From: a virus
Lineage: Duplodnaviria; Heunggongvirae; Uroviricota; Caudoviricetes
Reading direction: 5' to 3' (one strand)
IMG/VR virus record: IMGVR_UViG_2721755676_000008
Coordinates: 1 to 40,917 of that record
DNA: 40,917 nt
Shown here: positions 25,213 through 26,265 of the stretch, piece by piece
Layout of the letters: the number at the start of each line of letters is the position of its first letter
Numbering within the stretch: position 1 is the first letter of the stretch
Translations under genes and position numbers: made by a program
The notes under the pieces: generated by a model
Database searches by the model: none
Told to the model about the DNA's origin: nothing
Seen by the model: the letters and a program-made list of their open reading frames with translations, nothing else

Positions 25213-26265
25213 TTATTTCCCCACCAGCTCGTTTATCTCTTTCACTGTCTGGTTAAACCGCTCTGACTCAAGCTCAACACCTAAGGCCCGACGCCCCAGC
25301 GCCATTGCTGCTTTTATTGTGGAACCGGATCCCATAAAAAAATCAGCAACCAGATCACCAGGTCGACTACTGGCATTGATTATTTGCCTGAGCATATCCG
25401 CCGGTTTCTCACACGGATGTTTACCCGGGTAGAACTGAACGGGTTTATGCATCCAGACATCGGTATAAGGCACGGAGACTGATACGGAGAAATAGCGCCG
25501 GAGAGATTTAAACTCATCCAGCAATTCAGAATATTTGCGATTCAGTGAATCATAAGATGCCACCAGCTGGTGGTGTGGTTGTTCCAGTTGTTGTTCCTGA
25601 AACTTCTCTGCCGCTATACGGGAAAACAGTGCCTGTAACTTCCGATAGTCAGCCTCATTCGGCAACTGCCACTGACTGGCACCAAACCAGTGGGAAACCA
25701 TATTTTTCTTACCTGTGGCTTCGGCAATTTGTTTTGCCGTTATACCCAGTTCGGCACGAGCATCCCTGAAATACGATATCAGCGGTGCCATTATGTGCTG
25801 TTTGAGTTCCCTTTCTTTTGCCGCATAGCCGTCACTTTTGCCGCGATATGGCCCCTGGTAATGTTCAGCAAACAGAACGCGCTCTGTGGCAGGAAAATAT
25901 GCGCGCAGACTTTCTTTATTACACCCATTCCAACGTCCGGACGGCTTCGCCCAGATGATATGGTTAAGCACGTTGAAACGTTCACGCATCATGATCTCAA
26001 TATCAGATGCCAGGCGATGCCCACAGAACAGGTAAAGGCTTCCGGCAGGTTTCAACACCCGCCAGAACTGGGCCAGACAGTGGTCCAGCCACTTAAGGTA
26101 ATCTTCGTCCCCTTTCCACTGATTGTCCCAACCGTTGGGTTTCACCTTGAAGTAAGGCGGATCGGTAACAATCAGGTCAATGGAATCATCAGGCAGGGAC
26201 TGAATAAAATGCAGGCAATCAGCGTTGATTAAATCAACACTGTTTATTTTTACAGTGTTTTTCAT
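25213..26265 (-). CDS. Orphan DNA methyltransferase (beta-class N6A/N4C type; DPPY motif)
   Basis: 350-aa ORF with DPPY (IVTDPPYF) near the N-terminus and an AdoMet-binding FxGxG-like motif (FFMGSGST) near the C-terminus; no adjacent restriction endonuclease. Confidence 0.8.

Follow-up and report, generated by a model that had tools for sequence, protein, structure and literature searches.

A phage methylase gene related to M.EcoGII and the conserved structured leader upstream of it

The window analyzed here, a 40,917-nucleotide (nt) stretch of viral DNA (positions 1 to 40,917 of IMG/VR record IMGVR_UViG_2721755676_000008; Duplodnaviria, Heunggongvirae, Uroviricota, Caudoviricetes), carries on its minus strand, at 25213..26265, a gene for a solitary DNA methylase of 350 amino acids (aa). 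Judging from its sequence relatives, we consider it highly probable that the product is an M.EcoGII-family enzyme that would methylate adenine in essentially any context, with a presumably late expression and a presumably protective role. The gene as such is already known, being of an ordinary, very common and characterized kind of prophage methylase; the only parts of the locus that appear undescribed are a structured leader of ~135-150 nt directly upstream of the start codon and the small winged-helix open reading frame (ORF) associated with it. We tentatively propose, as a possibility somewhat short of probable, that M.EcoGII-type genes carry an undescribed control layer in which this start-sequestering leader RNA and, at most loci, a 67-aa winged-helix protein would gate and possibly retarget the enzyme.

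Class, relatives and specificity of the methylase

The methylase ORF is intact and ATG-initiated, and its product matches the Pfam family PF01555 (N6_N4_Mtase) across residues 29-341 (E 2.2e-42; 145.9 bits against a gathering cut-off of 26.7 bits) as well as the PHROG family phrog_67, 'DNA methyltransferase' (E 1.6e-102). Residues 35-38 read DPPY and residues 309-316 read FFMGSGST, with FxGxG at 310-314, and the two Pfam halves are separated by ~90 extra residues, with a central helical target recognition domain at ~160-237. Because motif IV comes before the target recognition domain and motif I after it, the protein is assigned to the beta class of N6-adenine methyltransferases. The initial annotation had described a 350-aa beta-class methylase with DPPY and FxGxG-like motifs, placed between Q and the lysis genes; the first description is borne out by the ORF, the PF01555 match and the motif order, and the second by a PF03589 Q antiterminator on one side and a phage-21-type lysis cassette on the other. 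The Pfam scan returned no MT-A70 match for this protein and a DPPW motif is absent from it, leaving DPPY and PF01555 alone.

Nucleotide identity of the gene is 99.3-99.7% to the 'DNA methylase' genes of phages vB_EcoS-569R4, cdtI, mEp460 and Ayreon, 97% to orf48 of Shigella phage SfV and ~85% to a gene in phages carrying the Shiga toxin (Stx) variant Stx2c, and megablast recovers it from no fewer than 1233 of 5426 complete E. coli genomes. SfV orf48, cdtI orf56 and the methylases of mEp460, Ayreon, phiP27 (L24) and the Stx2a and Stx2c phages can thus be regarded as the same gene in the same place, at 85-99.7% nucleotide identity. These phages share the upstream small ORF and leader, and differ in the cargo between Q and the methylase module; in the Stx phages, the methylase is followed by tRNA genes and stx in place of the holin.

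M.EcoGII and M.EcoGI, from prophages of E. coli O104:H4 C227-11, are of the same class and of nearly the same length (349 versus 350 aa), and are likewise prophage-borne and solitary (PMC5778455). The window methylase is ~81% identical to M.EcoGII over 349 aa, with at most two one-residue gaps, and its linker and target recognition domain align to those of M.EcoGII gap-free. By region, identity amounts to 89% in the N-terminal catalytic part, 77% in the target recognition domain and 75% in the C-terminal catalytic part, all of these figures being lower bounds because the reference was taken from the machine-read supplement of PMC11551740, which contains reading errors. Homology to M.EcoGII over the full length, without gain or loss of a domain, places the protein in the M.EcoGII family, which has been modeled as a Rossmann core joined by a charged helical linker to a four-helix target recognition domain of the helix-turn-helix (HTH) type (PMC11551740). 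Identity to the reconstructed ancestors of that family is 89% for Anc291, 87% for Anc289 and 70% for Anc284 (SUPREM), which, unlike the natural window methylase, are synthetic sequences.

M.EcoGII methylates adenine in any DNA context and acts on RNA too, and many of its close relatives occur in enterobacterial phages (PMC5778455). The reconstructed ancestors Anc291, Anc289 and Anc284 are all active on DNA and RNA, and M.EcoGII, Anc291 and SUPREM show no sequence motif, the specificity of the ancestors having been profiled on RNA and their DNA activity measured as turnover of S-adenosylmethionine (SAM) only (PMC11551740). Since the window methylase falls within the range of sequences that these tested proteins span, we infer that it is a non-specific N6-adenine methylase. 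The promiscuous phage adenine methylases of the Hia5/M.HaeV type share with the M.EcoGII family a phage association and little or no sequence specificity, but they are described as alpha-class enzymes, in which the motifs run the other way round (Drozdz et al., as cited in PMC5778455), and their architecture is not homologous to that of the window methylase.

The position of the gene was compared across 80 loci sampled from Enterobacterales, one genome per species, in which methylase identity ranges from 63% to 93%. In 70 of these loci the 3.5 kb upstream of the methylase contain a Q antiterminator (a count that combines three confirmed Pfam families, PF06530, PF06323 and PF03589, with one unclassified cluster taken as Q); 72 have lysis genes downstream, and 64 have both. 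The neighbors seen comprise Q, holins, endolysins, spanins, DUF1367 and a terminase-associated HNH protein, and the cargo includes a RelA/SpoT-like and NA37-like pair and a ClpP-like protease; no restriction-endonuclease Pfam family was found among the recurrent neighbors or in the variable cargo between Q and the methylase. Likewise, no endonuclease gene adjoins either methylase of the window, nor the methylase of the annotated phages. The claim of the initial annotation that the methylase is an orphan lacking a cognate endonuclease therefore stands within the window and the 80 species loci, and an endonuclease gene next to it in related elements, which would have pointed to a complete restriction-modification system, was encountered neither in those loci nor in the annotated phages. 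Its placement in a late-operon moron slot holds in part: the late-operon place is right, but the gene is not a loose moron, forming instead the core of a conserved module of winged-helix ORF, structured leader, methylase and terminator. The second, Dam-like methylase that had been noted in the nin region (30850..31536, minus strand) is likewise upheld as a second solitary phage N-6-adenine methyltransferase, by matches above cut-off to PF05869 'Dam' (E 1.1e-45; 155.7 bits against 28.1) and to the NCBIfam equivalog TIGR01712 'phage N-6-adenine-methyltransferase' (255.3 bits against 97.05). As the RefSeq homologue is 217 aa long, this second gene probably begins in fact at the ATG at 31503.

Some observations weigh against a relaxed specificity of the window methylase. 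It differs from M.EcoGII at 19% of residues, and at 23% within the target recognition domain, and few substitutions can change the specificity of an amino-methyltransferase; RefSeq calls its relatives 'site-specific DNA-methyltransferase', though this is an automatic name. The alternative would be a site-specific orphan methylase with a defined motif, which would guard against one class of restriction enzyme or serve as an epigenetic regulator like Dam or CcrM. Site specificity is indeed usual among PF01555 enzymes, the closest solved relatives of the window methylase are site-specific, and the nearest NCBIfam models are YhdJ-like and CcrM, though both score far under their cut-offs; the target recognition domain, moreover, is merely 77% identical to that of M.EcoGII. 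We nevertheless judge such an enzyme highly improbable, for all the tested members and reconstructions that bracket the window methylase (M.EcoGI, M.EcoGII, Anc291 and SUPREM) are non-specific, the linker and target recognition domain align to M.EcoGII without a gap, and M.PflMI, the nearest site-specific relative, is without the charged linker (PMC11551740). A methylase that forms one half of a restriction-modification system would need an endonuclease, for which the candidate is the DUF968/HNH-like protein at 28315-29310 (minus strand). PHROG labels this protein 'HNH endonuclease', it has a sub-threshold match to HNHc_6, and it occurs within 3.5 kb of the methylase in 46 of the 80 loci. We do not regard it as a partner because it belongs to the general gene content of lambdoid nin regions, is missing from the other 34 loci and is set apart from the methylase by Q, the late promoter region and terminators. 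A non-specific methylase, furthermore, has no matching specific endonuclease, and no other neighbor matches an endonuclease family bar the usual terminase-associated HNH, so that we rate a restriction-modification pair as extremely unlikely.

The structured leader and the small winged-helix ORF

The leader (26263..26418, minus strand) fills the spacer that separates the small ORF from the methylase AUG and is predicted to fold into two domains. In hairpin A, AUGGGC pairs with GCUCAU, and GGCUGGUGGGUG pairs with CACCUGCCAGCC. In domain B a basal stem, formed by GGUCA with UGAUC and by AAGCG with CGCUU, pairs the ~12 nt directly before the AUG and surrounds an inner hairpin (GGCCCACUGCUUU...AAAGCAG..GUGAGCC). 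The methylase AUG is preceded by no visible Shine-Dalgarno sequence, and most of the 15 bases before it have an unpaired probability below 0.2. Single-sequence folding returned the same two-domain fold in seven diverse leader copies, with z-scores of the minimum free energy between -2.2 and -4.3.

The predicted pairing is also reflected in the pattern of substitution. In a MAFFT alignment of 26 leader copies, 92.4% of cells pair, and double-sided changes are found at 9 pairs compared with 4.0 in shuffled alignments (0 of 500 reach 9) and 1-5 in slid controls. R1, the covariance model derived from this alignment, scores 166 bits at the window leader, directly 5' of the methylase AUG. It also matches immediately before the methylase AUG at 57 of the 80 species loci and at each of the nine annotated phage or E. 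coli loci, its matches including loci without the small ORF. In a model-fitted alignment of 59 copies, which by its construction leans towards structure, double changes occur in 18 of 41 pairs compared with 8.6 in shuffles and 5-8 in slid controls. At 48 of 57 loci, nucleotide identity is higher in the leader than in the methylase coding sequence, the respective medians being 82% and 73%. We also considered the leader as a coding upstream ORF, since a conserved AUG in hairpin A opens the reading frame MGGWWVL; both frame and length vary (7, 33 and 43 aa, among others) and distant copies alter the peptide, and there is therefore no conserved peptide.

By blastn the leader is present in 60 phage records and in 2688 of the 5426 complete E. 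coli genomes, at 3970 copies in all. Among the matches listed in the E. coli genomes no annotated feature lies under the leader, and in a few phage records a 'hypothetical protein' is drawn over it. In IMG/VR contigs a 21-nt core of the leader occurs 77 times with enough downstream sequence, and in 74 of these cases the methylase follows at the spacing expected. The remaining three viral contigs (L143, 12370-13083; L106, 1252-1965; L169) keep the small ORF and hairpin A and have a gene for a 237-aa AraC-family regulator in place of the methylase; in L143 and L106 the same short ORF follows this gene, and L143 also has a 617-aa ORF before the holin. In Photorhabdus and Xenorhabdus loci, the leader is shorter and retains the 5' motif and hairpin A. 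In Stx2c phages (e.g. LC727876.1, 16593-17741) the window leader recurs with 100% identity beside a methylase gene that is only 85.5% identical, suggesting a recombination boundary at or near the start codon.

No Rfam family matches the leader at its gathering score, and none matches within 25100-27620 at E values up to 1 apart from weak terminator-like matches elsewhere in that interval; weak matches to Trp and Leu leaders were merely terminator hairpins. The known prophage small RNAs Pas, AgvB and AsxR were set aside as candidates, as they lie elsewhere, and the leader core sequence was not found in the literature searched. The closest database relative of M.EcoGII found here (P0017) shares the arrangement of Q, small ORF, leader and methylase, and we found no mention of the small ORF or the leader in the accessible portions of the M.EcoGII papers.

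The small ORF (26416..26619, minus strand) encodes a stand-alone winged-helix protein of 67 aa if read from MLKQQDMTE, or of 75 aa if read from the first ATG at 26643; the start at MLKQQDMTE (26619) is probably the one used. It belongs to phrog_331 and is a homologue of SfV orf47, and its sub-threshold matches are all to winged-helix families (DprA_WH, TrmB, MarR, HTH_20 and Rrf2). A hidden Markov model search places it next to the methylase, on the upstream side, in 53 of 77 species loci (~69%) across Enterobacterales; it has this place in 71 of 75 viral contigs too, and in the phage collection it occurs in essentially the same records as the methylase module. It is not obligatory, since ~24 of the 77 loci keep the methylase and leader without it. 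A precedent exists in M.EcoPA8orf6770P, an MT-A70 methylase of the Stx phage phiPA8, which needs the small winged-helix protein PNB-2 encoded upstream and forms with it a 1:1 holoenzyme that prefers 16S rRNA (PMC10810198). As at the window locus, a prophage methylase annotated as a DNA adenine methylase has a small winged-helix gene immediately upstream, there co-transcribed with it. M.EcoPA8orf6770P, however, is an MT-A70 enzyme with DPPW, related to M.EcoGV, in contrast to the PF01555 family and DPPY motif of the window methylase. Because the methylase family differs and about a third of loci are without the small ORF, we treat the analogy as a lead rather than a finding; by this analogy, the small-ORF product may be a partner or regulator of the methylase.

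Two other explanations bear on the proposed control layer, one for the leader and one for the small ORF. The conserved spacer might act at the level of DNA and not of RNA, for instance as a recombination joint or as a palindromic operator bound by the winged-helix protein or by the HTH of the methylase. Hairpin A is a near-perfect inverted repeat beside a winged-helix gene, the sequence is highly conserved with its stems included, the sequence past hairpin A is swapped for another gene in the three viral contigs with the AraC-family regulator, and the Stx2c spacer keeps full identity next to a methylase gene of 85%. Folding energy, moreover, does not separate the two strands (medians -53.2 versus -53.6 kcal/mol). 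As folding energy is uninformative here, we relied for strand assignment on non-canonical pairs: G-U cells number 216 and A-C cells 39, which favors the mRNA (sense) strand, and pairing reaches 93.8% in the sense orientation versus 86.4% in the antisense. An operator would also leave unexplained the long-range helix, whose arms lie ~60 nt apart and which holds five covarying pairs; near-identical winged-helix proteins (loci L057 and L073) adjoin stems that differ and yet remain complementary; and the leader persists at loci that have no small ORF. We accordingly judge an operator palindrome less likely than an RNA structure and retain a DNA-level element as an unlikely rival. As for the small ORF, the native enzyme might be a two-subunit holoenzyme in which the winged-helix protein redirects or restrains the methylase, for instance to rRNA or phage DNA, with 'non-specific' describing the isolated catalytic subunit. 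The steady position of the small ORF directly upstream, its co-occurrence with the methylase module, its winged-helix signature and the PNB-2 precedent with an unrelated MT-A70 methylase would all fit such an enzyme, as would the activity of M.EcoGII on RNA. Yet M.EcoGII is highly active alone, the loci without a small ORF retain the methylase, and phages of the 933W type are not among the small-ORF matches; we consider a holoenzyme quite unlikely.

M.EcoGII is prophage-borne and not expressed in the lysogen, and its over-expression is toxic and slows growth (PMC5778455). Our hypothesis for the leader, read from its predicted pairing of the bases just before the AUG, is a cis-acting element that probably restrains or times translation of a toxic methylase.

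Gene neighborhood and predicted expression

In order of transcription on the minus strand, the DUF968 gene is followed by the gene for the Q antiterminator, which includes a zinc-finger region (27549..28343; PF03589), and, ~105 nt past the Q stop, by a GC-rich hairpin with a T-run (27419..27442); this hairpin is probably where the late-promoter leader transcript has its tR'-type terminator. A lipoprotein-like moron of 141 aa (26843..27268; phrog_4748; GC fraction ~0.40) separates Q from the methylase module, and downstream of it lies a second terminator-like hairpin (26742..26765) that is 96% identical to the first. SfV has a single terminator after Q, at the place of 27419-27442, and no lipoprotein gene, which suggests that the lipoprotein gene is a moron inserted together with a duplicated terminator. 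Past the methylase stop, an intrinsic-terminator-like hairpin with a T-run (25190..25206) precedes the holin, and SfV and Ayreon annotate a terminator at the equivalent place. The lysis cassette opens with a phage-21-type holin (24930..25145 within the ORF 24930-25208; likely true start MKSMDK at 25145) and continues with a 165-aa lysozyme with a hydrophobic N-terminus (24433-24930) and Rz (23969-24448), beyond which lies the terminase (20560-23153), all on the minus strand. The dual-start MKSM holin and the 165-aa lysozyme resemble the phage-21 pair of pinholin and signal-anchor-release endolysin.

The expression logic rests on sequence and on general lambdoid biology. The methylase stands behind terminators that only Q-modified RNA polymerase should pass, and its expression is therefore predicted to be late only: it would be silent in the lysogen and transcribed once, after induction, the modified polymerase passes the terminators. 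This would be consistent with the reported silence of M.EcoGI and M.EcoGII in lysogens (PMC5778455). It counts against a late expression that a consensus scan found no late promoter after Q on this strand; TTGCAT-17-TAAGAT at 27517-27489 was read by eye as a candidate late promoter and is not confirmed by the scan. In the enzyme itself, DPPY would form the catalytic site and FxGxG would bind SAM, and the helical, HTH-containing target recognition domain would contact nucleic acid without reading its sequence, so that methyl groups would be moved from SAM to adenines in essentially any context. Progeny phage DNA would then be heavily methylated before packaging and, bearing N6-methyladenine (m6A), would be protected in the next host from m6A-blocked restriction enzymes, which are numerous among Types I, II and III. 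Such broad restriction protection is the role proposed for the M.EcoGII family (PMC5778455).

The surroundings of the module vary between loci. The cargo between Q and the module is often oppositely oriented, as at loci L018 (2357..238 nt upstream), L056, L047, L044 and L054 and in cdtI orf53/54; examples are the RelA/SpoT-like and NA37-like pair and pairs of membrane proteins without Pfam matches, and these variable genes look like defense-type morons. Directly downstream of the methylase at seven Xenorhabdus loci (L081, 1242..2018 nt past the methylase start, and six others) lies a gene for a 258-aa protein that combines a Tad2-like Thoeris anti-defense domain (PF11195) with DUF7823; it would be a second counter-defense gene in the same late-operon slot. 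In Stx2a phages, the Stx2e phage phiP27 and other Stx phages, small ORF, leader and methylase stand directly upstream of stxAB (L085, 4632-7314; L086, 4138-6816; L089, 3501-6176), with ileZ and arg tRNA genes between the module and stxAB in L085 and L086, and this position immediately upstream of stxAB places the module in co-transcribed territory with the toxin genes.

Two RNA elements were noted elsewhere in the window. At 33630-33818 on the minus strand, the Rfam families C4 antisense RNA (82.8 bits) and isrK (63.7 bits) match side by side; this is an antirepressor control region of the P1/P7 type, situated in the prophage's early part. A full-length match to the IS009 RNA (223.6 bits; 381-579, minus strand) overlaps a 193-aa ORF (341-922) beside the tail-fiber genes.

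Significance of the leader and winged-helix ORF

The methylase itself adds nothing new: it is a further copy of a gene that is very common in prophages and belongs to a characterized family. As the tested members of the M.EcoGII family methylate adenine in any context, the profiling of a target motif that had been suggested for this gene will probably return no motif, and the biologically relevant questions are instead when the methylase is produced and what keeps its toxicity in check. The leader and the small ORF deserve a modest follow-up in this regard, which would be of relevance to phage counter-defense, to the biology of Stx phages, in many of which the module lies directly upstream of stx2, and to users of M.EcoGII, an enzyme that is sold as a reagent (EcoGII). 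If functional, the leader and the winged-helix ORF would account for the tolerance of a lysogen towards a gene for an enzyme that methylates every adenine, and they might show that the native enzyme is regulated or targeted. Should the proposed control layer prove true, the M.EcoGII-type enzyme would so far have been studied only as an isolated catalytic subunit.

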